From assembly GCA_049999805.1 (NCBI GenBank), contig JBNGIO010006342.1:165778-229777 (forward strand): 64,000 nt of DNA, in the 5' to 3' direction. The DNA is from Folioceros fuciformis (lineage: Eukaryota). The position numbers were made by a program, and so were the translations under genes. Shown here one piece after another: positions 23,951 to 49,710 of the stretch (its first letter is position 1; each line of letters starts with the position of its first letter). The notes beneath the pieces were generated by a model. That model saw only the letters and a list, made by a program, of their open reading frames with translations. It was not told where the DNA came from and made no database searches.

Positions 23951-24343
23951 GTTCTTATACTAGTGGCTAGAACAAAATGATCTATATGTTACTAAGTCAT
24001 CACCCAATAAGCAAATTGCCGGACGACATGCAGCCACTAATGTCCGTTCCTCACAATGGAGGTCATGTAAAAAAGGACCCGAATTATAGTTTCATCCTTA
24101 ATAGAAAGCCAGTAATTTAAATGGGCAATACTCACTTGATGATCATGCGAATGCTCCCCATACTAAATAGGGTTAATGTGAGGGCAATTTAACCAACCGT
24201 AAACCCTAACTAAACCATCCTTAAACAGTATTTAAACTATAAACACTTAGCTATATAACACACTACACAGAGCAAGAGCACTTGCACCACCTACCAAATC
24301 CTAAGTACTTGTATGAGTATAAAATTACTATGAAAGAAGTTCT

Positions 24344-26133
24344 TCACAAAATTGTACAAAACCAACTCCTCCTTGTGTCTTTACCACCAATCGTCTTCGA
24401 AATAATTGAGTCTTTTTCAATGCTAATATTCTCTACAACCAAGTGAGCTGCCTCTTGTTTGTTTTTCAAATCATAACATAGATTACCTATAAAGTTTGTA
24501 AAAAATATATTAGTATCCTACCATAAAAATTTAAAAATAAAAAAAATTATATTAGATATTTTGCATACCTAATTTGATGTATGCGGATGTAGATGCATGG
24601 GTTAAACACATTTCTCCCAAGTATTCAAAAACTGCAACATCACGATTTCCATTGATGGTAGTTGTTATCCGTGGTTTAATAACTAACCTAATCTCTTTCT
24701 TTTTCCTCATTTTTTAATTAAAATCTCATTAACTCTACATAAAATACTAGAAAAATGCCTTCATGTTCATCTAAGAACTTGATACCACTTACCATNNNNN
24801 NNNNNNNNNNNNNNNNNNNNNNNNNNNNNNNNNNNNNNNNNNNNNNNNNNNNNNNNNNNNNNNNNNNNNNNNNNNNNNNNNNNNNNNNNNNNNNNNNNNN
24901 NNNNNNNNNNNNNNNNNNNNNNNNNNNNNNNNNNNNNNNNNNNNNNNNNNNNNNNNNNNNNNNNNNNNNNNNNNNNNNNNNNNNNNNNNNNNNNNNNNNN
25001 NNNNNNNNNNNNNNNNNNNNNNNNNNNNNNNNNNNNNNNNNNNNNNNNNNNNNNNNNNNNNNNNNNNNNNNNNNNNNNNNNNNNNNNNNNNNNNNNNNNN
25101 NNNNNNNNNNNNNNNNNNNNNNNNNNNNNNNNNNNNNNNNNNNNNNNNNNNNNNNNNNNNNNNNNNNNNNNNNNNNNNNNNNNNNNNNNNNNNNNTAATT
25201 TTCTTTCATTCAATCATCTTTTAGGGTACTATTAGCATACCTCAAAATGACCGCATCATGTAGTAGGTCAATTTTGTTCTGAACCAACACCATAGGAATT
25301 TTCCCGCATTCTTCTTCAATCTAAACAAGCTTAGCATAAAAGATCACTTAAGCGTTTTTTGAGACGTGTTTTGAAAACAAGGACATTCAGCTCTATACCT
25401 TTTGTTTCCATGTTTTGATTGAATTGAAAGATTCTCTATCCGTTGTAGAGAAACAAAGTACAGCAGCCTTTGCACCTTTAAAAAAAAAAATGTTACTTGT
25501 CAATGTTATCGTATTTTTAATTTCTTTAATATACAACATAATTGGAAAAACATAATACCTCGATAATACGATTTTGTTATAGATTGAAATTGCTCTTGCC
25601 CAGCTGTATCCCATAACATAAGTGTAACAAATTCTTGCAAGGTTTTCACAAACCTAGTAAGGTAAACATATTTATTTATCAACAAAATATATAAAATTTA
25701 TATCAAAATTTAACTTGAAATGTGTGTTAAAAGAAAGTAACACCTTTTATTCTTACAGTCTTTTCTCAAGAAAATCTACTCCAATGGTTTTTTTGTATTT
25801 TTCAGAACATTGTCCTTTGCAAAATTGTCGAATCATGCTTGTTTTTCCCACATTTCCATTTCCTACTATAATAATTTTTATCTCTCCTACAAATGCATGA
25901 TAAATGAATGTTAATAGTTTGTGATTATGGAAAGCTTTTTCTTGTAAAAATATTGTTATAAACCTTCTTTCTATGCATAAGAGAATATAAACCAAAGCTT
26001 GTAAAAGCAGCATTGATTTGGTCATTGATTTGAATAGCATCTGATTTTTAAAAAGAAAATAAAATTTTATATATATGACATGTAGCTTAGAAAGGTGCAG
26101 AAGCTTCAGCTTACTTTCAAAATCTTCTTGCAT
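24344..26133 (-). CDS. RAB23: Rab23 small GTPase. Exons 26133-26115, 25886-25757, 25653-25559, 25475-25399, 25320-25241, [exon lost in gap 24796-25195], 24631-24569, ~24486-24344.
   Basis: MQEDFEREIKIIIVGNGNVGKTSMIRQFCKG..YKKTIGVDFLEK; LMLWDTAGQEQF..ITKSYYRGAKAAVLCFSTTDRESF; IPMVLVQNKIDLL; VFEYL; C-terminal CaaX CTIL. VGNG, YKKTIGVDFLE, FSTTDRESF and VQNKIDL are Rab23 signatures. Confidence 0.9.
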
Positions 26134-30834: not shown

Positions 30835-32364
30835 ATGAGTATCTCGGAGAGCACCAGGATGGCGGTGGCCCGGCAACGAGCTGCGGCGAGGGGGCATCGG
30901 GTTTCGTCGAATCCCTTCTCGGATGATGAGGACTCTACCACCTCCGGCTCCTCGCTCACTTCCCGCTCTTCTAATCCGTTTGATGACGAGGTGGCGTCGC
31001 ACAGCCGCGTTTCCGATGCCAGGAGACGGGAGAGGGCCTTGCGCCCGACGCAGGATAAGGTTTTGTCAGGGTCTGTGCTTGGTGCGTCTAACAATCCTTT
31101 CGATGAACCCGAGGTTTCTAAGGGGTCCAGAGGGAGCAGGTCGCAGGAATCTTCCAGGCGGGCTAGGGCGCCCTCTGGAAATCCGTTTGATGATGATGAT
31201 GCTGGGGAGACTAGAGGATCGGGATCTGGAAGTGAGAGGCACGCGAGGTCGAAGCCGGAGTCGCGGCGGGGGTCTGCGGGGAATCCTTTCGACGATGATG
31301 CGCTTGTGGCCAAGGTGAGGAGCAAGCACAACAGTTTGAGTGCTATTGAGACGGGGTCTGGGAATCCGTTTGATGATGAATATCCGGTGCCGATCAAGGC
31401 TAAACATAACAGTTTGAGCGCGTTGGAGAGGGACTCCCTGTTTGCCAGTGAGGAGAAGCCTAGTAAGTCGCAAAGTTCCAGCAGGCGGAACAGTGGGGGG
31501 AGTGAACTGAGTGAGGACTCGGCAACGACGGAGAGGAGGTCCCGAAGGGGAGCGCAGATCAAAGAGAAGGTGGTTTCCATTTACTCTGAAAGTGTGGAGA
31601 AGGTAGCGGCTGTTGGGGAAAGTGTGTCTAATAAGCTGCAGAAGCCGAAGAAGAGTTCCAGTGGTCAGGAGGACCGGCGGCTGGACCGAAATGCGCTTCT
31701 GGATGGTAGTGCTCAGGCTCGCCCCCGTCCTGTTCCTACTCCGGTGCGTTATGGGGAGCAGGGGTTTGAAGGCCAGAGTGTGGAGCAGCTGCGTAGTTAT
31801 GCTCACGAGAAGTCCAGAGAGACAACATCAGCAATCGAAAATTGTTTGAGGGTTGCAGAGAACACGAAAGAAGTTGCCGCCAGCACTATGGCCCAGCTTC
31901 ATGATCAAGGAGAACAGATCCGCCGAACCCATGAGATGGCAGTCAAAGTGGACGAAGAACTCAGCACTGGAGAGAAGCTGCTGGGAAGCTTAGGAGGCAT
32001 GTTTTCCAGGACCTGGAAGCCTAAGAAGAATCATGCTATCCATGGCCCGACGGACGGTCCTACAAGTGACTACAGGCGCAAAAACTATCCGGAGCAGCGT
32101 GCTTCTCTTGTGCAGGGGGATAATGCCGGAAAACTTGCAAGCTCGCAAGCCCTGGAGCCGTGGGAGCAGGAAAAGTTGAGGCAGGATAAGGACCTGGATA
32201 AACTGAGCAACTTGCTTACTGGGTTGAAGGATATGTCAGAACAAATGGGTGCTGAGATCGGCAAGCAGAACAATAGCTTGGAGGGTCTTCAAACTGATGT
32301 TATTGAGTTGCACAACAGGGTGGAGCAATCCAACCGGCGTGGCCTGAAACTTTTGGGAAGATGA
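30835..32364 (+). CDS. SNAP25-type Qbc SNARE (SNAP33/SNAP29-like), intronless, with six NPF motifs in an extended N-terminus
   Basis: FEGQSVEQL..YAHEKSRETT..NCLRVAE..TMAQLHDQGEQIRRTH..GEKLLGSLGGMFSRTWKPKK; second SNARE helix QDKDLDKLSNLLTGLKDM..MGAEIGKQN..SNRRGLKLLGR. Confidence 0.92.
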   Translation: MSISESTRMAVARQRAAARGHRVSSNPFSDDEDSTTSGSSLTSRSSNPFDDEVASHSRVSDARRRERALRPTQDKVLSGSVLGASNNPFDEPEVSKGSRGSRSQESSRRARAPSGNPFDDDDAGETRGSGSGSERHARSKPESRRGSAGNPFDDDALVAKVRSKHNSLSAIETGSGNPFDDEYPVPIKAKHNSLSALERDSLFASEEKPSKSQSSSRRNSGGSELSEDSATTERRSRRGAQIKEKVVSIYSESVEKVAAVGESVSNKLQKPKKSSSGQEDRRLDRNALLDGSAQARPRPVPTPVRYGEQGFEGQSVEQLRSYAHEKSRETTSAIENCLRVAENTKEVAASTMAQLHDQGEQIRRTHEMAVKVDEELSTGEKLLGSLGGMFSRTWKPKKNHAIHGPTDGPTSDYRRKNYPEQRASLVQGDNAGKLASSQALEPWEQEKLRQDKDLDKLSNLLTGLKDMSEQMGAEIGKQNNSLEGLQTDVIELHNRVEQSNRRGLKLLGR

Positions 32365-32999: not shown

Positions 33000-34330
33000 A
33001 AGGTGCGGGATGCGTAATGGCGATTTGCTTATAGAATGTCATATCCATACATGCCTCGCACATCGATTAGGGCACCTCTTCAACTCCACCATGCTATGGC
33101 GGGCACCTCTTCAACTCCATCATGCAGCGGCTATGGCGGGCACCTCTTCAACTCCATCATGCAGCGGCTATGGCGGGCACCTCTTCAACTCCACCATGCA
33201 GTTGCTATGGCGGGCACCTCTTCAACTCCACCATGCAGTTGCTATGGCGGGCACCTCTTCAACTCCACCATGCAGTTGCTATGGCGCTCCATCGGCTTGC
33301 TAGGGGGTTGCTATGGCGCTCCATCGGCTTGCTAGGGGGTTGCTATGGCGCTCCATCGGCTTGCTAGGGGGTTGCTATGGTGCTCCATCGGCTTGCTAGG
33401 GGGTTGCCACCTCATATTGTTGCAAATATGTATGGCGTAGGACGATGGAGCTTGCTAGGGGGTTGCCACCTCATATTGTTGCAAATATGTATGGCGTAGG
33501 AGCTATGGCGTAGGAGCTTTGACTGTGGCTCAATACACCATTATGATTTCAGATTATGATTTTAAAGATATGTAGTTATGAGGAAAAGTTATGGCTCAAT
33601 ACACCATTATGATTTCAGAGATATGGAGTTATGAGGAAAAGTTATTTTCCAAATTGGTTCATTGGCCTACAGGGATGGAACTAGAGCTAACAACTTCAAA
33701 GTTCAAGCAACTCACAGGTCTACCCAATATGGTTGGAGCTCAAGCAACTCACATCTCTACCCAATATGGTTGGAGCTTAAGCAACTCACACGTCTACCCA
33801 ATATGGTTGGAGCTATAGATGGTTCTCACATCAAGCTGACTACACAACCTAATCAGATAGATAACCCAGTTGCATATTAGTGTCGTCATGGTATTCACTT
33901 TGTTGTACTACAAGGCGTATGTGATGCTAACAAAAAATTCATCGATGTATGTTGCACTTATCTTGGTGGAGTTCATGATGCTACAATTCTTAGGGAGAGT
34001 AGCATATGGGAGAAGATGAAGACAGGTGTTATTTTAAGAGACCATATTCTACATATCGAGGATATTGAAATGACTCCATATATCTTAGGTGATAGTGCCT
34101 GCCCATTAATGCCTTTCCTCATGAAGATCGGACTAAAAAATATTTCAATCAGTCCTTAGAAGGGGTAGAGTGAAAGTGGAGAATGCTTTTGCCTTGTTGA
34201 AAAATAAGTGTCGTATTCTAAAGAATCTTAATGTGTGTTTGAAGTATGCTCCATAGGTCGTCATCGCTTGTTCCGCACTTCATAATTTTTGTATACAGGT
34301 TGGAGAGTTAGAAGCACGACAATATGATGA
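33000..34330 (+). mobile_element. Degenerate PIF/Harbinger transposase (DDE_Tnp_4) with internal tandem duplications
   Basis: VAMALHRLARG..VANMYGVG; LPNMVGAIDGSHI; VVLQGVCDANKKFIDV; GGVHDATILRES; YILGDSA; VKVENAFALLKNKCRIL. Confidence 0.85.
33070..33410 (+). repeat. Two abutting tandem arrays: ~6 x 37 bp, then 4 x 32 bp
   Basis: Unit gggcacctcttcaactccaccatgcagttgctatggc (33070-33285). Unit gctccatcggcttgctagggggttgctatggc (33286-33410). Confidence 0.95.
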
Positions 34331-34868
34331 AGACCCATTTCCACTACATGAAACTGAGTGTAATCATACTTGGGAAGCTCTTGCAAAGCGTCGGATGCAC
34401 AACATAGTAGTGATAGAACAAAATAAATTGTTTGAGTATTGGAAAAACAAAGGAACTGGTGATGTTTGAGGTTTAGTAGTAGCAAAGTTGTTTGTGGCAT
34501 ACAAACATGTTTGGAAACTTCGATATATGACTGCTTCAATTTCTATGGAAATTTATTTATTTGAAATTGCTATGAAAATTGTTCCATGAAGCTGAAACAA
34601 CCAAATATGAGAGCACACATAAAATAGATGTACCTACAAGCTACTGCCAGATGCACACATCCTTGACATGGAACGTACCACCAAATTCCACTACCTACCA
34701 ACTAACTTTCCACACCACAAGCACACGTGGAGAACATGCTATATGTTTGAGTGGGAAGAACTATATGTGCTTATGTCTCCTTGTCAAAGCACACTTTCAT
34801 CAGGCCATTGAAACCAAACATGCTACTTTCCTGAAGGGAATCTTCTTGCCAAGATAGTAGCAGCCTTC

Positions 34869-35830
34869 CTACCCTACATGGAGCCTCTTGCCTTCTTGGT
34901 AGGTAAGCAACTTGCCTGCCTTCTTTGATGGGCAAGCAACCTTGCATGGAGCCAACCTGCCTTGTCTGGAGTCTTGTTCACCTGTTGCCCTTCTCCCTTC
35001 CAAGTCTGTCACAAGTCCTAGGAGTTCATTTGTCATCGACATCCTACCTTTCTTGCCACTTCTACTATGTTCACCAAGGCCTCCTTCAGGTAACCCTGCA
35101 AGCATCGCTGTAATTTTCAGTTGGTCTTGCATTTGCAATTCATTTTGGCTGAGCTCATGCTGCAACATCAGTTGTTGCATGTGAAGTTGGTTTGCCATTT
35201 TGGCTGCTTCAATCTTTGCCAGACAATTAGCGAAAGATGATAAGCATTGCAATTTCCTTTCCCACTCCTGAAATAGAAGACCTTCTACACTTGACCTTTT
35301 ACATTGTACATGATCACTCATATTGTCTTGTTCTATAGTTCTTAGCTTACTTGGGGATTATGCATAGTGCTCCTCTATTGTCTCTTCAGCTTCGGAAGTG
35401 ACGTGATAGGGTGCATGTGGTGATTGTTCCAAATCAAATGAGTAAGTTCTACTCTTTGCAGCATCGGAAGGTGAGTTGGCAGTACCTTGTGACATCTTTG
35501 ACTTGCCAGGATCTAAGGCACCTGGAATCCCTTGGAATTTGGGGCTTTTGTCACAAAGGTCTGCCATCACATGGAAGTGAGGCCACGAGGAATTGATGCT
35601 TCCTATTGCTGTTTTTTGCTCCTTCTCCTTTCGGTACCGCTTCTTGAGATTTTCCATTTTCATCTTACACTTTTTTGCAGTCACACCAAGAAGGCCACAG
35701 TTGTTGCTAACTTCAGCAGCCACCTCACTCCAGTGTCTTGTAGTGAGATTACCTTGCTTGAGGTGCACCTAGTGCATCTCATGATAGGCCTCTATCAGAA
35801 CAGTTGTCGTGAAATTGTCAGCGTGCGTCC
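34869..35830 (-). pseudogene. Myb/SANT-like (trihelix, Myb_DNA-bind_4) partner gene of the Harbinger element
   Basis: VLIEAYHE..QGNLTTRHWSEVAAEV..TAKKCKMKMENLKKRYRKEK..SSWPHFHVM, followed by a Gln/Leu coiled coil. Convergent with the transposase, the usual two-gene Harbinger layout. Confidence 0.8.
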
Positions 35831-36086
35831 TGTTCCTATAACTGGTGCACTGATCAGCAGCTCACACACCTTCTATCTGCCTACACACCAAGACTGAGCA
35901 TTCAGCTCACCTTCCTAGCATCCTCAGATGTTGCCCACTGGCTGGCAGTGTCCTCATAGCGTCCTCACAAAAGCAGTGATAATGAAGAAAAATGGATTTA
36001 TCCTAATTCCCCCCCCCAGCTGGGTGCTAGGGAGACCACAACTGCATGAGTTGCGTTCAATGAGCTTACGTGAAGCAACTTACCCT

Positions 36087-36441
36087 TCAGGTAGAAGAGT
36101 GTCCCCACTCTACTTGTCCATTGCATCGAGGGCAGAACCACACATTGTCAGGCACTTCAGTCAGCGGCGGCTGTAAGCAGAATAGATGAAACCCACCATT
36201 ACAGTGATCACACAGCAACATTAGTTCTGGATCATCGATCCTTTGACAAATCTAACAAGGGTAGTCTATTGGGGAAACCCAGTTTGCTGTTATGATCGTT
36301 GGATCCAAGGTGGGCAAGTGATAGGGGGTGCAATTCTTCATGTGATCTATAATTGTGTGCCCGTCTGCCCCCTCCAAGACCAACACGCCGTTGCTTTGGA
36401 CTTCCTTCACTCGTAAAACGTGCCTACCGGTGCTTGGCTCC
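36087..36441 (-). pseudogene. Integrase C-terminus plus PHD finger of the gypsy element
   Basis: EPSTGRHVLRVKEV..LEGADG..DYPC*ICQRIDDPELMLLCDHCNGGFHLFCLQPPLTEVPDNVWFCPRC (C4-H-C3, 36123-36257). In frame with the integrase once copia-2 is removed. Confidence 0.9.
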
Positions 36442-36718
36442 TGTAGGATCACTAGAGAAGCATGGTGGAGGAGAGGAGAAGAGGAGGCAGAGAGGAGAGG
36501 AGAAAAAGAGGTCACATTGAGAGTGTTTGGCAAGGGAGCTCAAGGGGGTATTTATACCCTCTAGAAGAGCTCCCTAAGAAGCTTCACAAGAAGCTCACTG
36601 GAAGCTGCGCAAGAAGCTTCCTACAGATTAGCTTAAGCTAATCTAAACTAATGATACTTAACTAGACACTAATCTTAGACTAAACACATTAGCCTAAGCA
36701 CATTGGGCTTTAATAACC

Positions 36719-39700
36719 CTACAACCTCCCACTTAAAGGCCAATTTACCTGCATAAGAGAGTGGTCTAGCTCATGCCCATGAGTGTCCGAGCTTGTGCGA
36801 ATTGCTCCGTAGAGAGCCCCTTGGTAAGAACATCTGCAGGGTTCTGAGGTGTGAACTTTGACAAGCTGTACCCTCTTGTCTTCCAACACCTCTCGAATGA
36901 AGTGATACTTCACTTCCACATGTTTGGTCTTTGCATGAAACACTGGATTCTTCGCCAACTGGATAGCACTCTGGCTATCACAATGCAACACTGGCAGCTC
37001 ACCCTTGATCCCCAAATCTCCCACTAAACGAGCAAGCCACATGGCTTCCTTGCAAGCCTCAGTCGCTGCAACATACTCGGCCTCTGTGGTAGATAGCGTT
37101 ATGCACGATTGCAAACGAGATCGCCATGAGACTGCCCCTCCAGTGCACATGAAGACATAACCTGATGTGGACCTCCTTTTGTCCATATCCCCTGCATAAT
37201 CAGCATCCGTATATCCTACTACAGATTCATCTCCACTACCAAAACATAAGCACAAAGCTTTTGTACCATTCAAATACCTCATAACTCCTTTCACTGCCTC
37301 CCAATGCTTCCTGCCAGGGTTTGACATGAACCTACTAACCACTCCCACTGCAAAAGCAATGTCAGGACGTGTAGCAATCATTGCATACATCAAACTCCCT
37401 ACAGCTGATGAGTATGGAACCTTCTCCATTTCAGCTTTATCCTCCGCAGAACTTGGGCAATCTTTGCTCGAAAGTTTCACATATGGAGGCAACGGAGTAC
37501 TTAAGACCTTCCCCTTCTCCATATTGAAACCTTGAAGCACCTTGTTAATGTATTCTGTCTGAGACAAGTACATCAAACGCTTCTGTCTGTCTCGACGAAT
37601 ACGCATGCCAAGAATATGGCTTGCCTCCCCCAAGTCTGTCATGTCAAAGCGACCATTCAACTTTGACTGCAACGCTGAAATCTCATCACTGTTAGTCCTA
37701 GCAATTAGCATATCATCCACATAGAGGAGTAGAATGAGCAAGCTTCCATCCTTAGCTTGCTTCGTATAGAGGCAATGATCCATATCGCTACGCTTGTAGC
37801 CTTGAGAAAGCATAAATGAGTGGAACTTGAAATACCACTCCCTGGGTGCCTGCTTCAAACCATAAAGGCTCTTCTTTAACTTGCACACCAGACTCTCTTT
37901 GCCCTTCTCAATGAAACCCTCTGGTTGCTACATGTATACCTCTTCCTGGAGATCACCATGCAGAAATGCCAACTTCACATCCATCTGGACAAGTTCCATG
38001 TCGTTCCTCGCAACCAGACCAAGAACACATCTCAAGGTAGTCATTTTGACAACTGGTGAAAAAATCTCATCAAAGTCAATACCTTGCTGTTGCTTAAAAC
38101 CTTTAGCAACCAATCGTGCCTTGTACTTAGGTTTGCCATAATGGGGTATGTCCTTCATCTTATACACCCATTTGCATGGCAACGCCTTCTTGCCCTTAGG
38201 CAACCGAACCAACTCCCAAGTTTGGTTCTTATGGAGCGAATCCATCTGCGACTGCATCGCCTTCTCCCACTTGTTTTTGTCAATCACTGACTTGGCCTCT
38301 TGGTAACAAGAGGGCTCCCCACAATCCGTCAGCATGACATAATCAAGAGATGCAACATTCCTGTCAGGAGGACGTGAGATCCTTCCTGACCTACGAAGCA
38401 CTGGCGCCTCGACCGGAGCTGGTTGCACTCTCTCCTCGTCTACAAGTGGAGGAACTTGTTCCTGCACATCACGATGTTCAGCCTGCGCGGGACGGTCAAG
38501 TCCATCTTCTTGGAAGACCACCCGTCGCACCTCCATAGTTGGAGTAGGCTTCTTGTGCATCTTGGTCTCATTGAAGAACACATCATTGCTGCGAACCATC
38601 CTCTTGGCTTCTGGATCCCATAGACGGTATCCCATCTCACCAGATTCACCATAGCCAAGAAAAATACATTTTCTTGACTTAGGAGCCAACTTGTCGCGAA
38701 ACTCCTTCGGAACATGGTAGTATGCCTCGCAGCCAAACACTCGTAGATGTTTGTATGACGGCTTCTTTCCATACCACATCTCCTCTGGAACCTGTTCATC
38801 CACAGCCCTATTAGGAGATCTGTTAATAAGATGCACTGACGTAACCACCGCTTCTGCCCAAAATCCGTTAGGCAATCCAGAGTTTGACAACAAACTACGC
38901 ATCCTCTCCTGGATGGTCCTGTTCATCCGCTCAGCCACACCATTCTGGGGAGGAGTATACGGTGCAGTCAATTCTCTCTTGATTCCCTTGGAATCACAGA
39001 ATGACTGGAAAGCCTTCGAAACATACTCTCCCCCATTGTCTGTCCTTAGACACTTCAGCCGGAGGCCAAACTGATTCTCCACAAGGGTGACGAATTTCTG
39101 AAACACTGTCAGAACATCATCCTTTTTCCTCAAAGGATAAACCCACACCTTGCGTGAGAAGTCATCAATGAAAGTGACAAAATAAGATGCACCGCCTAAC
39201 GACACAGTGGGCATAGGTCCACAAATGTCACTGTGAACCAATTCAAGAGGTTTACTTTTGTGTTTACCTCTTGCTCCATGTGGTGACTTCGTCTATTTTC
39301 CATACAAACAGTGCTCACACACGGAGAAATCGGAGAAGTCAAGAGCAGGGACGTAACCAAAACGAGATAAGATCTTCATTCCTTTCTGAGACATATGTCC
39401 TAACTGACTATGCCACAAGGAAACACTTGGCACTTCCGCTACATGATCCTTGACAGTGGTTACCTGAAGTGAGTACAAAGTGCCACACTTCGATCCACGA
39501 GCTATCACAAGAGAACCTTTGGAGATCTTCCAAGAACGATCTCCAAACCAACAGTGGTAGCCAGCGTCATCCAACTGCCCTGCGCTAATCATGCTTTTGG
39601 TCAACTTCGGAACATGCCTGACATCCTTTAGTGTGAATGAAGATCCGTTGTCGAACTTCAGCTGCACATCACCAACGCCTGCTATCTCGCACGCGTAGTT

Positions 39701-40702
39701 ATTTCCAAGCCGAACACATCCTTTCCTAGTAGCATCATAAGTGCTAAACCACTCCCTATGCGGAGTAACATGGAAAGATGCTCCAGAGTCAATTATCCAA
39801 TTAGAGAATAAGTGACTCTCCATGGCTGTCAGTTGTGCAGAACCAAAAGAAGAAGAGATAAGAACATCTTCATCGTCAACAGAGTTCACCTCATCACACT
39901 CGATACTGGAATCTGCCTTGTTGTCGCTCTGCTTCTTCTCCTTGCCTTTTTCCTTCATGAACTTCTCGCAGTCCCTTCTGATATGACCCTTCTTGTGACA
40001 ATGGTAACACTCAACATTGTTACGACTACGAGATTTGCTACAGGAAGAACTTCGCTCCTTGTACTTCCCCTTTGAAGTGGACCCTCCTCTCACCATGAGG
40101 GCATTAGAACCTTTCGAAGGTTCCATATTCTTCCTGTTCACCTCCTCTGTTAACAGGCTACCTTCTACATTTACAACAGTAAGACCACTGGCAGGAACGG
40201 AATTACTCAGAGCCGTACGGAAGGTGTCCCAACTCTCTGGTAATGTGACCAACAAAAACATAGCTCTCACGGAATCTGGGAACGAGATACCTTGAGATGA
40301 GAGCTGGCTGAAATTGGTATTGAACTCATTCAGATGATCGGACATCCTCGTCCCTTCCTTCATCTTTAAGTCCACCAGCTGTTTCAACCAATACACCTGA
40401 GAAGCCGCACTTTGCTTCTCATACAAGTCACACAGCTTCTGCCATAGCTCGAAACTTGTGGTCTTGTCTTTCACGTTGAAGTAGACCGACTTCGACACTG
40501 TTAGCATGATGGTAGACCTAGCAAGCTCATCTAGATCTTGCCACTCATCCTGAGTCATGCTAACAGGTTTCACTCCTAGCAGCTTGATGGGCTTGATCTG
40601 CTTCTTCTGTACTAGAACATTATACACTTGTTCTTTCCAGAACGGGAAGTTAGTACCATCTAACTTCTCGATATTGAACATGACGTTTTCTGAGGACGTC
40701 AT
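36719..40702 (-). pseudogene. copia-2 gag-pol, nearly intact (two in-frame stops and a terminal frameshift)
   Basis: [95 protein letters not shown]. Confidence 0.95.
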
Positions 40703-40989
40703 GCTTCAAATTCGATCCAAATCAACCAAAAGGCTAGTTTGAAATTGGTCGAAATGAAATGTAGATTCTACAGGTTACCCTCACAACTTCTTCCGAATCG
40801 TATGTCCACGACTTGGGCCTCTGTCGCTCATAACAGGAATGTCCTTCTACGTTTGATCGAGATCCTGACTTCCTCAGCCGGGGTCAATACGGCACCCACA
40901 CTCTCGCTCCCGGCGTCTGCGATTTGTTCACTTTCCGGCGCTCGTCAATCGGGTCCTCGCTTCACTGGCACGCTCGTTTCGAGCGTCAC

Positions 40990-41340
40990 GGGCGCCCACG
41001 TGGTGCCCGGTGGCGCCTAGGTGGCGTCCACGTGGCGCCCAAGTGGTGCCCAAGTGCGCCTGCGTGGCGTCCTGATGGCACCCAGTGGCGCCCACGTGGT
41101 GCCCAAGTCGCGCCTAGGTGGCGCCCGTGTGGTGCCCAAGTCGCGCCTGGGTGGCACCAAGGTGGCGTCCAAGTGGCGCCTAGGTGGCGCCGATGTGGCG
41201 CCCGCGTGGTGCCCAAGCGGCGCTGATGTAGCGCCCGCTGGCGTCCACATGGCGTTGATGTGGCGCCCGGTGGCGCCCAAGTGGCTCTCACATAGCGCCT
41301 AGGTGGCGCCTGCATGGCGCCCCTGCCCCTCCTAGATGGC
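40990..41340. repeat. GC-rich degenerate array of ~11-bp GGTGGCGCC-type units in the copia-2 5' leader
   Basis: Repeated (g)gtggcgcc/gtggtgcc/gtggcgtc units between the PBS and the gag ATG. Confidence 0.8.
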
Positions 41341-41663
41341 CATCTTCATGGTCTTGCTCCACAACGTGCTCTGATACCACTTGTAGGATCACTAGAGGAG
41401 CATGGTGGAGGAGAGGAGAAGAGGAGGCAGAGAGGAGAGGAGAAAAAGAGGTCACATTGAGAGTGTTTGGCAAGGGAGCTCAAGGGGATATTTATACCCT
41501 CTAGAAGAGCTCCCTAGGAAGCTTCACAAGAAGCTCACAGGAAGCTGCGTAAGAAGCTTCCTACAGATTAGCTTAAGCTAATCTAAACTAATGATACTTA
41601 ACTAGACACTAATCTTAGACTAAACACATTAGCCTAAGCACATTGGGCTTTAATAACCCTACA

Positions 41664-42440
41664 GCTCCAGTGTATCCTGCGTTTGGCGCTGCAAATACAC
41701 ATAGTTGCCAAACTAGAATTTACGCACCTTAGGTCGGAAGCTGCCACTTCGTGTGTAAGCATATCTAAGATCTCACGGTGTTGCGTGATCTACAAGTTGG
41801 CCATGGCCATAGGCTCCTAGGACCCTTTTGAATAGTGTTGCCCGTTCTCCTATGGCCCTTGCCCACGTTGCTAGATTGTCCAGGTCCGGGACTTCCTGCA
41901 TCTGCTTCTTAATGGCTGCGGGAGGTACTGGTCCTATCCAAATAGCAAAAAGTAAGGCGAAAAGTTTGCCAAAGCTGCATGACGGCTCATCCGATATCCC
42001 ATGGCGATGTAGGGCAGCTGCATGTCCCACTCCGTCTTGGGCTTAGCGAGGCATAGTTTTTGCAGAGCTTGCTTGATGGTCTGGACCATTCTCTCCGTGA
42101 GTCCATCCGCTTGTGGGTGGTCCCGGCTGGTGCGCCTGTGATCTATCAAGGCAGCATCCAGCAAATCCTGGAATTCTCCTCTAAATTCCGCTCCTTGGTT
42201 CGTCAAACATTCGGCATTGCTTCCAAACCTGCTGAGTATGTTGTGTAGAAACGCCTGTGACGTACTACGGAATGTCTTGTCTGGGAGAGCTGCCAGTTCC
42301 AGCCACTTGGAGAAATGCTCCACCATCACCATGATGTACACATTTCCCCTGGGTGTTCAAGGAAACTCTCCTGCCAAGTCATACGACCACCGGAAGAACA
42401 AACCCATAATGGGCAGTGGATGCAACTATGAGTGTGGGTT
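41664..42440 (-). pseudogene. Gypsy integrase catalytic core
   Basis: LHPLPIMGLFFRWSYDLAGEFP*TPRGNVYIMVMVEHFSKWLEL..CLTNQGAEFRGEF..HPQADGLTERMVQTIK..FSPYFLLFG. Confidence 0.92.
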
Positions 42441-42444
42441 GCTG

Positions 42445-43440
42445 GATGTAGGTTTGATAGTAGTTGCATAGCCCCAAAAACGCCCTGAGCGCTGACACAC
42501 CAGCAGGGACAGGGATCTGCTATATGGCCTGAACCTTCGCAGCATCTGGCATGATGCCATTTAGTAAGATCCTGTGTCCCAAGTAAGCCACTGTATCCAT
42601 GGCAAACTCACACTTGGCGGGATGACAAGTTAACGAAGCCTTTCGCAACCTCCTAAACAAGTCCTCCAGGTGTAGCAGGTGAGTCTCAAAATCAGTGCTG
42701 TGAACCAACACATCATCTATGTAACAAAGAAAATGTGGTGCCCCAGCCAGTACCTTGTCCATCACCCTCTGGAACATAACTGGCGCATTTTTAAACCCGA
42801 ATGGCATAACCAACCACTCCTATAATTGATGCGCTCNNNNNNNNNNNNNNNNNNNNNNNNNNNNNNNNNNNNNNNNNNNNNNNNNNNNNNNNNNNNNNNN
42901 NNNNNNNNNNNNNNNNNNNNNNNNNNNNNNNNNNNNAGGCAGTCTTATGTATGTCTTCTTCCGCCACTGGTACCTGATTGAATCCCTGCTGTAGATCCAG
43001 TGTGGAAAAGAAGATTGACTAACCTATCCGATTAAACATCTCTTCACAAGTAGGCATGGGATACCTGTCAGTGGTGGTCACAGCGGTCAAGGGCCGGTAG
43101 TCTCTGCACATACGCTTCGCCATCTAGAGCCCTTGACTGTCCTTCTTGGGTGGGAGCAACGTGGCAGCTGCAAAATCCAAGTTTGAAGGGCGGATAAGCC
43201 CTGCCTTGTATAGTTCCTGACAACGCGTCTCCACAATGTCCCACTCAGACTAGCTCAGCCGATATCTCCTTCTGAAAACCGGCTCTGGGGTATTCAGCTT
43301 GATCTTGAAGGTCATTAAATTACACCTCTTCAACTCTTGCATGCTGAATGCGAAGCAGTCAGCATACTGCAGGATCAACGCCTTCAATCGACGTCGTTGT
43401 CCTTCATCCAACTGAGGACCCATCGTCCAAATGAAATTCC
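42445..43440 (-). pseudogene. Gypsy reverse transcriptase (100-N gap at 42837-42936)
   Basis: PVFRRRYRLS..GLIRPS..KKD..RMCRDYRPL..DRYPMP..STLDLQQGFNQV..KTA|EWLVMPFGFKNAP..YIDDVLVHS..KCEF..YLGH..RAFLGLCNYY. Confidence 0.93.
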
Positions 43441-43649
43441 CTGCATTAAAGGTGGCTTAGGTGGGCCTCCAGCATCCGGGCCAGGATCCCGCTTGGAAGC
43501 AGCAAGTGCAGACCTGACAAGTGCGTGCTCCCCCCCCCCCCTGCTTCCAGCAGATAGGAGTAGTAGTTGAAACCTGGGAACGGAAGGTGCACAATATCTG
43601 GGTGACACATATGAGCCACCAAACCTCCCTTGTGACGGGCAAAGGCTTG

Positions 43650-44610
43650 GAAAGCCAAACACAAATTGACCAACTACGTAAGGGCATAAACATCCATGGC
43701 CCGTCCGAGTGCAGCGAATTGCTGCATGCGGGACGCCTTGGGTGCGGCCGTGGATTGCTGTGGAAAACCCATGATGCGCTCACACTCCTTGACTGTAGGT
43801 TCTTCCCACTGGTTGGTGTCGGAGTTCAGTAGCAACCCTGTCCCTTAAGCGCTGTAAGCATAGCTACCCGGGTAAGTCACCAAGGTAGGGAGGGTGCGTC
43901 GTGGCTCACCAGGCTTGTTGGTGGGAAACCATGGTGCACGCTCTGTAGCTTTAATACGCCGCGGTAAGTGATTGGTGTTGAGCACTGTTGCGAGGTCCAA
44001 AGTAGCATCACGCTGCTGCTGACTCAATGCCATGTGAAGCATAGACACAGGGCATAGATTGGTCTAGTAATTCCGTAGTCAGTGAGCAAAGCTGCCCACT
44101 TGTACTGCGTCCATAGTAAAGGCTGGACCAACAACATGTTGTATCAAAGCCATATCCTATTGAAGCTGGGTTCTGGGATCCAGATGAGCGGGAGTGTTCT
44201 CTAACATGTATGCCATTGATGGATTGACCTCCTGTGACCATGCCAGGATTTGTGCTAAGGCTCGGAAGAGTCCTGATCTAGGATCTGAGAGTCCTGCTCC
44301 ACGACCTGCCCGTGAGAGACCCTAACACTCCTTGCCAGCAACGATAAGATCTATAGGTCCCAAGTGCTGCACATGGCTATGTTGAACATAGGTGAGGTTC
44401 TGTGGCAGAGCCTGAAACATGCTTTGACAAGCATGTAAACTAAGTTGCTCTGGGTACATGTCATGTAACATACGTACCCGATGCTCCGCCATATGCCTGA
44501 CTGTCGGGCAGATGTCACAGTAAATGTATCACTGCACCTATAGCCCACATCGCAGTGCCACTTCAAGTCCTGTGCAAAGTCCTCCAAAGAGCTCCATGAG
44601 TGTAATACCC
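43650..44610 (-). pseudogene. DNMT3-like C5 cytosine DNA methyltransferase domain inside the gypsy pol
   Basis: One reading frame with 8 stops. I: ITLMELFGGLCTGL. II: YIYCDIC. IV: GPIDLIVAGKEC*GLS (Cys codon 44325-44327). V: GLSDPRSGLF. VI: YMLENT (44193-44201). VIII: DAVQVGSFAH*LRNY*TNL. IX: ECERIMGFP. X: ALGRAMDV. Confidence 0.88.
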
Positions 44611-47600
44611 GCTGTGGGTGGGGTATTACAAGATACAATCGCAGTGTTGATAGTTGACATACACGGTGGTGGTATCCTGGTCAATAGGGCCTTGCCCATA
44701 AATGACTCCTGCAAGGTTTTCATGACATGAGCCATCTACTCCTGTGCCTGTTGCACAGCTCTTTGTCTCGATACCCCTGTCTGAGTGACATCAACCGTAA
44801 GAATGGAACTGTGAACGGAGTTATCGTGATAAACTTCAACCTCCTACAAATGTTGCTGTAGTAGGAACTCTTCCAGACTGTCACATTCCTGCAACCATTC
44901 ATCTCCTTTGTCGTCAAGGGCTAGTTCTAGCTCCTGCGTAGGTTTCTAATCCACCAGAGCAGCCATACATGCCTGTGTTTCCACAATGGACACCTCTGTA
45001 GCCTGCATAACTCCATGCAGATCAAGAGGGATGTGGGCAATGCGTTGGCCACTCTAACGCCAGTCTGGGCGATAAGTAGCTTGCTCTACCCAATTGTCAA
45101 TCGGGACACCAGGTGGGAACAGAAACTCTTGCCCCAGCAAGATGTCGTAGTTAGTTGCCGTGGTCACTACACAACGCAATGGCAACATCATCTCATCATC
45201 AATGCCTGCCTTCAAGGTAATTCGCACATGTTGCACTGTTTCCCCGCACACAGGCTCCACAGCACCGAAGGCCATCTATATGTTCCACGGAGATGGCTTC
45301 AGGGCTTCTCCTGTCTGTCTCAACTTAGCTGCCAAGATCTTGCCCACGATCACTGGTTGACCTCCAGCATCAAGCAAGACAGCCCTGGAAGCCAAGTTGT
45401 TGACAAGTACGTGTTTGTTCCTGTTGTCCACCAAGACATTGCTGACTCTAGCGCGTGCACGGTTCGTGGGTTGCACAACAAGCAATCCCTGCACCTCTTG
45501 TGCCAACTGAGCAGCCTGTACCACCTCTCCTCGTGCCAGGACATCTACCCACGTATCGCAAGAACGCTCCAGCCCCCCCAGATTGCTGGTCATGGCTTCT
45601 GCGCACCCACTGGGTAGGCTAGGTTCCACAATCACTTGAGGGTCTTCAGACAACAACATGGCTTGGAGTTGAGCTTCGCTGTACCCAAGTTCAGCTAGAC
45701 TAAAGAGTGGTGTTGACGTCATCCGAGCCATAAGGTCCTTGCTCGTGAACTCGGGGACACCTGGGTGCAAATGACGCAACCTTGATGCGCCTCTCATTCC
45801 TGCAATTGGACACTTTTGCCTAGTTCCATCTTCCAACACATCCTCATCTGGCAAATGATCAGCGCCCCTCACCAGCATTGCTACTTCCGGTGGTAGCTGC
45901 TGGAAGGACTGAGGTATGACCGCTCTAGCTCCACGCAGATGTGTTGACACAATTGCGGGACTTGGTACCTGGCCTACCCATGATTGTGGTAAACTCATAG
46001 TCTTCGTCCCTCCTTGGTGCTGCCCTTCAACACCCATTTTTCCAGATGCACCACCTGATCTATCAGCAATGCATGCCTCCCAGGCCCAACCATAGTCCTC
46101 TCCGTTAGGATCCAAGGTTCCACCTGGTTCCAACTCCGCGGTATTGACAGGCTTTGTGACAGCTAAACTGGCAACAATGGCACTTACTTGGGTAGTGAGA
46201 GTGGCCATCACCGTCTCCAAAGCACTCATCTTATCTGCCTGAGCCGTTGACTTCAGCTTGACCTTGTCACATTGAGCTTTACTCTTGGTGATCGATGAAG
46301 TTCCCAACTCAGCAAATGTATCTGAGCTCCCTTCTCCTGAAGTAGTGGGCGTGCTGGTTGCAGTCCTTTACTGACGCTGCTCTGGATGCTTTTGAAAGCA
46401 CACTGCTACCACATGACCGGTCTTGTGACAATGTGAACATTGTAGAGACTCCACTGGACACCTACATGCCGATGCTAGGTGCTCTGCACTGGTGCACCTA
46501 TTGCACAACGGGCCCATTGTAGCTGCTGCAGTTGTGGTTGGCTTGGTCTTGCTGCTGTCCTCAGAGTTTCTCCCTGTGCCATGGCTTCCCCCAGTTCCAC
46601 TTGAGCTTGAACCTCCCTTGTTTGAGAACATACTCTGATAATGGTTGAAAGCCTTGGTATGTTGGGATGCATACGCCGAGAATGCCAACTCCTTCTTCTC
46701 TGCCTCTTGATAGACTTGATGCAAGGTATAGTTGTCTTTGTACTTGTTCACAAGGGTGGTGAATAACTGGTAATGGAACATCAGGTCTCTCTCCATCATT
46801 GCTAAGAACTTCTGAGCCGCCTCTTGGTCCGTTAGCATTCCTGTTCCGTCCCACAATTTCTGCAACCTTCTAAATGCCATCTGAACAGTTTCACCCTTCT
46901 TGCGCGCAAAGGCTGCAAGCTCAGCTATTTTCTTTAGCGTCTTGGTAGGGAAAGCCTTTTCCAGTATACTGAAGAAATCCATCTCTATTGGTGTCATGTT
47001 CACCACTGTAGGTGGTGGCACACTGGTGGCAATAGTGCCTGCAGCAATGCCTGTCTGGTGTGCCGATACTACTGCAAACAGCAGAGCATTGTAGGCCACT
47101 TGCAAAGCTGCTGTATACGCCGGGTTAGGTTTCTCCCTCATCGCTAGTATCTCTGGAGCATGAATTTCAAACAAGTCCAAGCCTCATCTGTTAAATACCC
47201 AGGCATCAATTCGAACATATACCGATGTGTATAAGCCGTGCCATGCTTGAACTTAGCTCGGCTGATGAGGTATCCATAGAACAGCCTAAAGTCACGCAAT
47301 GTCTGAGTTCCTAGCCTTCCCGAGAACTTCTTGGACTTGTGTACTGAGGAACTTGAACCCTCCATGATGATAGACTCCTCAGCTTCCTCTTTTGAGCTGG
47401 AAACTCCCCCTACAGCTTGAATTATGGTAGTCAAAGGTGACCAACCTACTCCTGCTCCGCTTGGAAATGTGACAGGATAACTACCCACTCCTTGGACTCA
47501 AGCTCCAGAGTTCTGATTCTCTGTCGGTTCAAGTTGACCTTCAACTGGTTCCTCCCTTGAAGCAGGACGTTCGCCTACCCGAGGTTGACGTACTCTTCTC

Positions 47601-49454
47601 CTAAAAGCCCAAGGTCTCCTGGGTACTATCCTGTTCCTTAAGCGGTAAACTCGCTCCTCATCATCCTCATCAGAGCGCATAACCCATGCAACAACAAGAA
47701 CAAGTGTCAGCAGCAAGTTGGCCAAAGACTGCCTCAAGATCACCTCACACTTACAGCGATGCTTCAACCCATTGGATCCTACGCCTGAACAGCTTGTCCA
47801 AGAGTGTACCCTAGACACACGTATTGTTTCAAGCACAAGTCTTCACATCATGATCAACGACACCTATCAGCTGTTTGTATCAACTGATGTTCCTATCCTG
47901 AGACCCTAGCAATCAGCCAAGGTGCAAACTCAGTTGTGAGAAGTAAATTCAATGAAAGTTGGAAGGGTCCCGCAGATGGCACACAACACACATGTCATGC
48001 GAGTCACCCTGAGTCACACTCAGCGATTGGGTAGTGCAAAAATATCAGCTGAAGTAAGTTATCCCCCTTTTGATCATCCCGACAAGCAGCCCCTCCAGCG
48101 GTCTCAAACACATTCGTGCATTGATTCTCAGAGTGAGACCCCGACACAGAACTTCCAGAAACTCGGTTCGCGCTGACATTAATTGTTCAGCTCCTAAGAG
48201 CACAACGGGTCGTGACACCGAATACTTGCATACAAGTTCCCATCATCCCCGTCAGGAGAACCCCTACGGCGCTAGCTTGCCAATCTACTCAACAGGAAAA
48301 GACTTCTCACAACTGAGGTTTCTCCTCGACTGCTCTGCACTTATCTGCTTCGTCGCCTAGGATAGGTTGATCTTGCTCTTTGTCAAAAAATTGCAACATT
48401 GTGTATATTTCCACCCCCTACATTATCAGAAAGGGAACTATCCTCATGGTCAGGAGTTTGAGCTACATGAGGAAATGGTTCAGATGATGAGTGTAGAGGT
48501 GTTTCATAGAGCTCATTCAACTCCTTGATGACAATGGGAGTTGCTCCCATTGCTTTGAGAGGATCTAATACTCCAGGAAAAAAAAAATCTCTATTGAAGA
48601 TGATTTTCTTGGTAGCAAGGTGATATAACCTATACCCCTTTACCTCATTGGAGTACCAAAGCATGATGCATTGGATGCCTTTAGGATCCCACTTGGTTTG
48701 GTTTTGCTTTGGAACATGAGCATTAACCATACAACCAAAAATCCTAAAATGACTTACATTAGGTTTGATACCAGACCACGCCTCCTCCGGAGTTATTCCA
48801 AGCATGTACCTAGTTGGAACTCTATTCAAAATGTAAGTTGTTGTAATAATGGCCTTTCCCCAAAAAGGTACTTTCAACTCACTTTGATAGAGCATGCATT
48901 TTGCCGCATTCACTAGGCTTCTTAGCTTGCGCTCTGCTACTCTATTTTGCTCTGACATGTGAGGAATTGTGAGTTTTCTTTGAATGCCACACTCCTTGCA
49001 AAGCTTTTGAATTGAGAAGAGATGTACTCCCCTCCATCGTCACTTCTCAAAGTTTTCAAGCATTCTCCACTCTCGTTTTCCACCAAGACTTCCTGTATCT
49101 TGAATGTGTTAAACACCTTGGATTTCTCCTTCAAGAGATACATCTAACTCTTCCTTGTGAAGTCATCCACCAAGACTAGAATGTAGCACGATCCACCATG
49201 GGTAGGATTCTTCATTAGTCCACATACATTAGCATGTACTAGCTCCAGCTTCATCGTTGCTTAACAAGCTCCGATCTTGGGGAACTTTGTTCGATGAAGC
49301 TTTCCCATTATGCACCCTTGGCATAATTGCACCTCTCCTTCCTCCTCCAATTCCAAGCCTTTCACCATTTGATAACTCTTCATCAACTTGATGTTGTGCA
49401 CTTTGGTGTGTCCCAAGTGTTGATGCCATAAATCAATTGACCTTGTGCTTTAAG

Positions 49455-49710
49455 GTGAGCTTGACACAATTGTGTAAGCTTCTTCAGCGAGCTTGATAGA
49501 ATTGTGTAAGCTTCTTTAGCGAGCTTGATAGAATTGTGTAAGCTTCTTCAGCGAGCTTGATAGCATTGTGTAAGCTTCTTCAGCGAGCTTGATAGCATTG
49601 TGTAAGCTTCTTCCGCGAGCTTGATAGAATTGTGTAAGGTTTCTCGACGAGCTTGATAGAATTGTGTAAGCTTCTTTGGCGAGCTTGATAAAATTATATA
49701 AGCTTCTTCA
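49455..49710. repeat. ~8 x 32-bp tandem array inside copia-3 pol
   Basis: Unit gcgagcttgatagaattgtgtaagcttcttca with minor variants. Confidence 0.9.

Follow-up and report, generated by a model that had tools for sequence, protein, structure and literature searches.

Why does a retrotransposon integrase end in a PHD finger, and what could such a finger do for the element that carries it? This question is raised by a locus in a stretch of 64,000 nucleotides from Folioceros fuciformis (GenBank assembly GCA_049999805.1, contig JBNGIO010006342.1, positions 165,778 to 229,777 of the forward strand), which we call the window and to which all coordinates refer. A preliminary description of this DNA had noted, at 36087-36441, a PHD finger in the place where chromoviruses carry a chromodomain. 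The analysis reported here showed that the feature is the C-terminal PHD finger of the integrase of a degraded Ty3/gypsy retrotransposon. Nearly all members of the large green-lineage family to which this element belongs have the fusion of integrase and PHD finger. With regard to function, we assign a probability of roughly 55% to the reading that the finger is an integrase-tethering module, which would dock on histone H3 tails without methylation at K4 and would be analogous to the chromodomain of chromoviruses; this reading draws on sequence similarity, a predicted structure, and analogy. The copy in the window is an ordinary dead insertion.

The finger, the split integrase, and their relatives

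The PHD finger is encoded on the minus strand at 36123-36257, with the codon of its first Cys at 36255-36257 and that of its last Cys at 36123-36125. Translation of this strand gave ...GRHVLRVKEVQSNGVLVLEGADGHTIIDHMKNCTPYHLPTLDPTIITANWVSPIDYPC*ICQRIDDPELMLLCDHCNGGFHLFCLQPPLTEVPDNVWFCPRCNGQVEWGHSST* (asterisks, stops), comprising the integrase tail, the finger, and the C-terminal residues. All eight zinc ligands are present in the canonical spacing C-x2-C-x11-C-x2-C-x4-H-x2-C-x14-C-x2-C, which bears out the exact C4HC3 spacing claimed earlier. The frame of the window copy is interrupted by an in-frame TAG at 36252-36254, in the second position of the first CxxC of the finger. In relatives of the window element the same position is open and occupied by ordinary residues; for this reason, and because host open reading frames (ORFs) follow the standard code, a reading of this TAG as a sense codon was rejected. 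A 53-residue piece without the first Cys matched the Pfam profile PF00628, the check proposed in the preliminary description, with 48.2 bits (cut-off 24; E value 1.1e-12), and the best sequence match of the finger in the PDB had an E value of 1.3e-14. The finger matches are far beyond chance for a 64-kb window.

The finger had also been placed at the C-terminus of the integrase, just before the stop codon, and our results agree with this placement. Finger and C-terminal SH3-like module of the integrase share one frame, with the finger downstream, and an 11-codon tail that ends in the terminal TGA at 36087-36089 (minus strand) follows the finger (36087-36122, from translation and the ORF list). 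About 70 nt downstream of the TGA, a stretch of nine G residues (36009-36017, minus strand), noted on reading the sequence, is a candidate polypurine tract. Upstream, the minus strand encodes at 36258-36441 the distal part of the SH3-like module, which is of the GPY/F type, together with the linker to the finger; this segment is 57% identical to residues 1368-1470 of the relative P0165, and its strands were predicted in a structural model described below. The finger thus follows a GPY/F-type module at the integrase C-terminus, which is the position of the chromodomain in chromoviruses. Within the SH3-like tail, an H-x3-C-x2-C-H pattern at 36318-36344 (minus strand) is kept in relatives and possibly forms a further zinc site; its residues were retained in 148 (H), 161 (C), 228 (C), and 208 (H) of 233 relatives. 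At the position of the Cys that 228 relatives share, Tyr is present in the window copy.

Directly upstream of 36441 the integrase tail is split by a nested Ty1/copia element on the minus strand (36442-41663; gag, protease, integrase, and RT_2), which was recognized by its terminal repeats, Pfam matches, and target duplication. Its long terminal repeats (LTRs) at 36442-36723 and 41382-41663 form a 282-nt direct repeat with 98% identity and TG...CA ends, and the target duplication GGAGC is found at 36437-36441 and 41664-41668. The coding region between the LTRs is complete, with matches to Retrotran_gag_2, Pol_BBD, rve, SH3_retrovirus, and RVT_2. Joining the sequences on both sides of the copia site linked ...YLQRQTQDTL to EPSTGRHVLRV... 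in a single frame, which corresponds to the SH3-like integrase module. As the frame is continuous across the insertion site, the finger constitutes the terminal domain of an integrase into which the copia element was later inserted, and the frame of the integrase tail makes sense only after removal of the latter. The ORF at 36252-36539 is misleading because its part 36442-36539 is copia LTR; this part was rejected as a piece of the integrase ORF, being LTR sequence read through by chance.

A word-indexed search with the 117-residue tail identified P0002 and P0001, the latter being 59% identical and having the order reverse transcriptase (RT)-RNase H (RH)-integrase (IN)-PHD. P0165 (1471 aa), a member of the P0001 cluster, has the order DNMT-RT-RH-IN-PHD, and P0196 (2358 aa) the order gag-protease (PR)-DNMT-RT-RH-IN-PHD, ending 14 residues past the finger. 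A search of the ESM Atlas with P0165 returned only generic Gypsy clusters (best score 0.89). An exhaustive search of 1.84 billion cluster representatives, each of which stands for one 50%-identity cluster, gave 7829 matches with an E value of ≤0.001, including 879 at ≤1e-10. Integrase tail and PHD finger were adjacent and colinear in 97 of the 150 best representatives, and the remaining 53 were PHD-only matches, mostly to multi-PHD proteins.

A separate query consisted of integrase only (P0165 residues 1040-1420, finger excluded). According to precomputed Pfam annotation, 116 of the best 120 of its 281 matches carry PF00628 and 17 carry PF00145, and the chromodomain PF00385 was found neither in any of these 120 proteins nor by Pfam in the window tail. 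The four listed proteins without PF00628 are two partial Klebsormidium nitens models, P0206, and P0220, the last of which nonetheless matched the tail-plus-finger query in a direct scan. The preliminary description would have been contradicted by intact relatives without the finger; the relatives were found to keep it. The named sources of the integrase relatives are Haematococcus lacustris, Pleodorina starrii, Klebsormidium nitens, and one metagenome bin labelled bacterium. A G-patch domain (PF01585) is annotated in 4 of the 120 listed relatives (P0223, P0250, P0265, and P0284).

The 233 relatives in which tail and finger are colinear were baited with the finger or the integrase and are therefore a biased sample; each of the eight zinc ligands is kept in 224 to 232 of them, and the Trp that precedes the last CxxC by two residues in 223. 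The idea that the finger is an accidentally captured host exon without a role, with which the non-functional state of the window copy would agree, is contradicted by the fact that more than 200 diverged relatives from chlorophytes and streptophytes have retained the fusion together with its intact ligands, and we regard it as barely credible.

In the lineage of the window element the protein ends at most 15 residues past the finger. About half of the relatives continue, 89 of the 233 by over 200 residues. Of 96 post-finger tails with a length of 150 aa or more, 95 belong to a single homology group (e.g., P0017, P0043, P0052, and P0071). This conserved tail was found in RH-DNMT-IN-PHD proteins such as P0043 and P0073. 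In Pfam at E values up to 1 it gave only a chance-level DUF match, and a PDB profile search returned only PHD matches among the best 60 of 124.

Type of the finger and its proposed role

The preliminary description had compared the finger with those of BAZ2, KDM5 (PHD1), and UHRF1, and both the PDB sequence searches and the structural comparison point to the same type. Among the best 60 of 68 PDB sequence matches, the top ones were WSTF, CHD4, Lid/KDM5 PHD1, BAZ2B, UHRF1/2, MLL3/KMT2D, JARID1D, ATXR5, ORC1b, PHF12, KDM5A/B PHD1, PHF21A, BAZ2A, DPF2/3, KAT6A/B, AIRE, and CHD5. A profile of the second subfamily of relatives retrieved the same set of fingers (best 60 of 124 matches). In comparison with cellular fingers whose structures were solved with unmodified H3, the E values ranged from 1e-14 to 1e-8 and the identities from 34 to 51%.

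An AlphaFold2 (AF2) model had a mean predicted local distance difference test score (pLDDT) of 79.7, with values of 90 to 96 in blocks of the finger and 87 to 93 in the blocks that hold the three tail strands (residues 10-33). The predicted fold is a cross-brace PHD fold, to which BAZ2B, UHRF1, and DPF2 align with a root mean square deviation (rmsd) of 1.1 to 1.3 Å. The top Foldseek matches of the model were Lid PHD1, BAZ2B, UHRF1, DPF2/3, BHC80, and KDM5B PHD1, together with BAZ2A in complex with an unmodified H3K4 peptide, ATXR5-H3, and UHRF1 and ORC1b with unmodified H3; the compact matches had an rmsd of about 0.8 to 1.3 Å over 45 to 51 columns. Chains of ING, BPTF, or TAF3 were absent from the listed matches of the two PDB sequence searches and of Foldseek. 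Most of the nearest solved fingers bind the N-terminus of H3 with K4 unmethylated (H3K4me0). Similarity in sequence and predicted fold supports the assignment of the closest solved relatives to the subclass that reads H3K4me0 or the unmodified H3 tail.

The residue two positions before the zinc-binding His, where we take the cage Trp of H3K4me3 readers to be located, is G in 213 of the 233 relatives. As no Trp is found at this assumed cage position, and no finger of an H3K4me3 reader occurs among the best 60 listed sequence matches or the listed fold matches, we consider it very improbable that the finger reads methylated H3K4 and steers insertion to active promoters. Cnidarian retrotransposons with PYGO-like PHDs recognising H3K4me nevertheless speak for it; they are mentioned in the text of Grau-Bove et al. 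(bioRxiv 10.1101/2021.11.30.470311).

Under the reading that we prefer, the finger of active relatives would bind the N-terminus of H3 when K4 is unmethylated. Such binding would tether the complex of integrase and cDNA to nucleosomes away from promoters marked by H3K4me3 and would bias insertion toward silent or gene-poor chromatin. The finger would in this respect work like a chromoviral chromodomain that reads a different state of the H3 tail, and the DNMT3-like enzyme encoded by the element would act separately, on the cDNA or on the new copy. This mechanistic idea is reasonable but unproven.

Several observations weigh against tethering to unmethylated H3K4. Similarity to H3K4me0-type fingers is not proof of H3 reading: the UHRF1 finger reads R2, the ligands of the MLL3/KMT2D finger differ, and according to PDB titles the UHRF1 PHD has also been solved with bound PAF15 and Stella peptides. 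In the lineage with the conserved post-finger tail, which about half of the relatives carry, the actual effector might be this tail. A SNAP33-like gene and a PTR2 gene are located within about 4 to 5 kb of the island of transposable elements (TEs) that contains the window copy, one on each side, so that the neighbourhood is not obviously heterochromatic. Furthermore, the C-terminal cross-brace finger of the piggyBac transposase was reported to be a sequence-specific DNA binder, as stated in the text of PMC5861402.

The last point, like the peptide complexes of UHRF1, would fit a finger that binds the DNA ends of the element or a host non-histone protein and serves intasome assembly or nuclear import, not the choice of chromatin. 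We regard such a role as unlikely, as the finger is 40 to 50% identical to canonical histone-tail fingers and has kept the acidic stretch and the H3-pairing strand, which presumably are the H3-contacting parts in published complexes. In the alignments with BAZ2B and Lid, acidic residues of these proteins stand opposite the acidic stretch that precedes MLLCD.

The methyltransferase-bearing element and its surroundings

The element was mapped by tblastn of the intact relatives P0165 and P0196 against the window. Its layout is gag-PR-DNMT3-like-RT-(RH)-IN-PHD, the same order as in the published Klebsormidium element KnitGypsy-Dnmt3. The alignment to the relatives is colinear along the minus strand: gag at 46976-46347, protease at 45434-45024, C5 methyltransferase at 44684-43536, RT at 43444-42424, integrase core at 42458-41665, and integrase tail with finger at 36440-36111. 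The gag-like ORF, which was placed by residues 196-426 of P0196 at 26% identity, extends over 46347-47183 and contains Cys/His knuckles; in Pfam it gave a weak zinc-finger match and nothing else. The aspartic protease region (45024-45434) was assigned through residues 654-791 of P0196, which has an Asp_protease_2 match at 663-711; Pfam gave no match for the protease piece of the window itself. Frameshifts and stops interrupt the DNMT3-like C5 cytosine methyltransferase between PR and RT (43536-44684; translation and tblastn), the RT region (42424-43444; Pfam and tblastn) contains an assembly gap of N at 42837-42936, and the integrase catalytic core (rve) with the proximal part of the C-terminal module (41665-42458; Pfam and tblastn) is frameshifted.

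The 3′ end of RT jumps directly to the integrase core, and RNase H and the integrase zinc finger (residues 782-1097 of P0165) are missing. As about 317 residues of the relatives have no counterpart, the window copy has suffered an internal deletion. The colinear alignment follows the pol order PR-RT-RNase H-IN of Ty3/gypsy elements, with the deleted RNase H and integrase zinc finger being present in the relatives, and the window copy is about 52% identical to P0165. With the TAG in the finger, the nested copia element in the integrase, the loss of RNase H and of the zinc finger of the integrase, and the frameshifts, the copy is dead; it is broken in many places, and nothing in it is functional. 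No pair of terminal repeats and no target duplication of the DNMT-bearing element flanks 36000-47900, where only the LTRs of the nested copia element and tandem arrays were found. The copy is truncated or overwritten on both sides, where the neighbouring Harbinger and copia insertions may have destroyed its ends.

The N-terminal 363 residues of P0165 matched only DNMT3A, 3B, and 3C in the PDB (29 matches, best E value 8.6e-8), and the window sequence 44630-43536 is 42% identical to the DNMT domain of P0165. PF00145 was found in P0165, P0196, and P0242. At about 44325-44330 (minus strand) an in-frame stop directly follows the presumed catalytic Cys of the methyltransferase. The window, P0165, and P0196 have Glu immediately before this Cys, at the position of the usual Pro, which is present in P0242 of K. 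nitens.

A census of domain orders covered 114 relatives with assignable positions for both RNase H and the zinc finger of the integrase. The linker between these two domains comprises at least 400 residues in 53 of the relatives, and all 53 have a DNMT-like match in this linker as well as the finger. Ten short-linker proteins have at least 450 residues before RT; in seven of these the DNMT precedes RT, as it does in the window element, and the other three are PR-RT-RH-IN-PHD proteins without DNMT, as confirmed by Pfam, that keep the finger. Of the 64 relatives that could be typed, 61 possess a DNMT-like domain, which precedes RT in 8 and is located between RNase H and IN in 53. All are PHD-positive, the relatives in the rows of the tree having been selected as such. 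This tree, calculated with FastTree for the region from integrase to finger (110 rows, all finger-positive; local SH-like support, midpoint root), was not used to draw an order of events. It splits the rows at a branch with a support of 96 into one group with all 8 rows with DNMT before RT, 40 untyped rows, 2 with DNMT in the linker, and 1 without DNMT, and another group with 51 of the 53 rows with DNMT in the linker, 6 untyped rows, and 2 without DNMT. DNMT domains of both positions align to the DNMT region of the window with similar scores. The finger is thus constant, and the methyltransferase occupies one of two places (between PR and RT or between RNase H and IN) or is missing.

This family structure bears on the proposal in the preliminary description that the element has rebuilt the logic of DNMT3 plus an H3K4me0 reader. 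The same element does encode a DNMT3-like methyltransferase, but the PHD finger is fused to the integrase and not to the methyltransferase; since in the lineage of the window element the two are separated by RT, RNase H, and IN, this is not an ADD-methyltransferase arrangement. One could still suppose that the finger serves the DNMT3-like enzyme by recognising H3K4me0 nucleosomes and directing or licensing cytosine methylation, an ADD-like logic made from separate parts. The deep co-occurrence of DNMT and PHD among the typable relatives would fit, as would the match of the DNMT to DNMT3A/B/C only; in the RH-DNMT-IN-PHD lineage, moreover, the DNMT is directly N-terminal of IN-PHD, and both could be part of one processed protein. 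However, this separation of the two domains weighs against it, the finger is a single plain PHD and not an ADD, the three DNMT-less relatives keep it, and it is always at the end of the integrase, whichever position the DNMT has. We therefore find this role of the finger doubtful.

A related and equally tentative idea combines docking of the integrase with methylation. A deep green-lineage Gypsy clade may have kept a DNMT3-like methyltransferase and an integrase PHD of the H3K4me0 type together during a long span of evolution and so have re-created the coupling of DNMT3 and ADD in trans, with the intasome docking on nucleosomes unmethylated at H3K4 and the element's own enzyme methylating the new copy. 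Selection on the pair is hinted at by the presence of the DNMT in two places in sister clades while the finger never moves. If this were true, the element itself would choose both its insertion site and its epigenetic state. More generally, as these elements carry their own DNA methyltransferase, it can be tested whether a mobile element chooses the chromatin in which it lands and its own methylation.

Finger-bearing integrase relatives from chlorophytes are P0192, P0248, P0258, P0261, and P0264 of Haematococcus lacustris and P0302 of Pleodorina starrii, and P0261 aligns to the DNMT region of the window with 179 bits. Hence the DNMT-bearing Gypsy family extends beyond Klebsormidium and the streptophytes, although passages in published papers imply such a restriction. 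It is larger and more varied than the text of PMC5890265 says, going far beyond the single Klebsormidium case in print, and the PHD finger is among its most constant features.

The surroundings of the element had been thought to fit targeting to non-genic chromatin. The copy does lie in a transposon island, but one copy in an island that was later hit by other TEs says little. The nested copia element is much younger than the element that it interrupts; it has long open frames of 470, 454, and 402 aa with single stops between them and contains a GC-rich tandem array with an 11-nt period at 40988-41342. On the 3′ side of the DNMT-bearing element there is a Harbinger-type transposon with DDE_Tnp_4 at 33881-34156 and Myb/SANT at 35361-35768. 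These Harbinger/PIF remnants extend over 33055-35768, the Myb/SANT-like ORF being on the opposite strand, and are preceded by 37-nt and 32-nt tandem arrays (33055-33434). On the 5′ side, a second, degraded copia element is located at 48386-50796 (SH3_retrovirus, Pol_BBD, and Retrotran_gag_2), with a 32-nt tandem array at 49393-49774. Host genes flanking the island encode a short-chain dehydrogenase, the SNAP33-like SNARE (30835-32361), and the PTR2 transporter (52136-53376). The SNARE gene (plus strand) is intron-less and codes for 509 aa with a long N-terminal region containing many NPF(D/S) repeats; its best Atlas clusters are from Streptophyta, which identifies the host as a streptophyte. 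Further away, positions 24001-26000 of the window are very AT-rich (GC content 0.25) around a run of N at 24796-25195; N also occurs in runs at 11323-11422 and 22414-22423.

Comparison with known systems

The closest published system is KnitGypsy-Dnmt3 of Klebsormidium nitens, described in the text of de Mendoza et al. (2018, PMC5890265) as a Gypsy pol with a DNMT3-like domain and, in the legend of Fig. 4c, as having DIRS-like terminal repeats. KFL_009030040 (P0242), a protein of K. nitens with the order PR-DNMT-RT-RH-IN, is colinear with the window element. The two are only about 39% identical over 1013 aligned residues, so that the window element represents a different lineage or host, and no DIRS-like terminal-repeat arrangement was found in the window. 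Being partial, the annotated proteins of K. nitens end inside the integrase tail, and these models therefore cannot show the finger. The term PHD is absent from the main text and one supplement of PMC5890265, the Fig. 4c of which may draw the finger, and the text of a 2026 DAM-LTR preprint likewise does not mention a PHD finger. In a literature search that did not extend to figures and most supplements, no publication was found in which a PHD is connected with the DNMT3-bearing Gypsy family or classified as an H3K4me0 reader.

Chromoviruses provide the functional model. The chromodomain of MAGGY targets H3K9me regions (Gao et al., 2008, as cited in the text of Grau-Bove et al., bioRxiv 10.1101/2021.11.30.470311), and de Mendoza et al. 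(2019) also refer to this work when they state that chromodomains of chromoviruses direct integration to heterochromatin. Like these elements, the window element has a small reader of histone tails, as predicted for it, on the integrase C-terminus after a GPY/F-type module, with a presumed tethering to a chromatin state. Unlike them, its reader is a zinc-binding PHD finger, with PF00385 lacking in the relatives and tail searched above, and the predicted ligand is the tail with unmethylated K4, not methylated K9. If the finger does read unmethylated H3K4, it would represent a second natural route by which a histone tail steers the integration of retrotransposons, beside that of chromodomain and H3K9me.

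PHD fingers in retrotransposons are already in print, and the finger of the window is a further, family-wide case. Passages in PMC9940879 and PMC8557442 describe PHDs in Chlamydomonas TEs, including the polyprotein of Gypsy-7a_cRei, and, as citing papers, in CR1-like LINEs and REM1; a role in minimising deleterious insertions was suggested for the Chlamydomonas PHDs (PMC9940879). A PHD is also reported in Ginger1-9_HM (text of PMC2836005), and fusions of TEs with PHDs and other readers were surveyed across eukaryotes (bioRxiv 10.1101/2021.11.30.470311). In these systems, as in the window element, the PHD is an accessory domain with a proposed action on chromatin or on the choice of insertion sites, and the integrase relatives from the chlorophytes H. 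lacustris and P. starrii carry a PHD as the Chlamydomonas TEs do. The passages in question do not describe the subtype of the finger and make no link to the DNMT3-bearing Gypsy family. In the legend on Gypsy-7a_cRei the PHD is placed before INT, and the position of the finger may thus differ from that in the window element.

With cellular fingers that read H3 (BAZ2A/B, PHD1 of KDM5A/B and Lid, UHRF1, PHF21A/BHC80, DPF3, AIRE, and ATXR5) the finger of the window shares the pattern LLCD-C...H..CL.PPL..VP...W.CP.C. It differs from them in that it ends a retrotransposon integrase and has no bromodomain, JmjC, or other host partner domain. The ADD domain of DNMT3A, 3B, and 3L reads H3K4me0 and releases the autoinhibition of the methyltransferase. 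As in this system, the window element combines a DNMT3-like catalytic domain with a finger that by its sequence is of the H3K4me0-reader type; unlike the ADD, this finger has no GATA-like half, is not adjacent to the methyltransferase, and is fused to the integrase.

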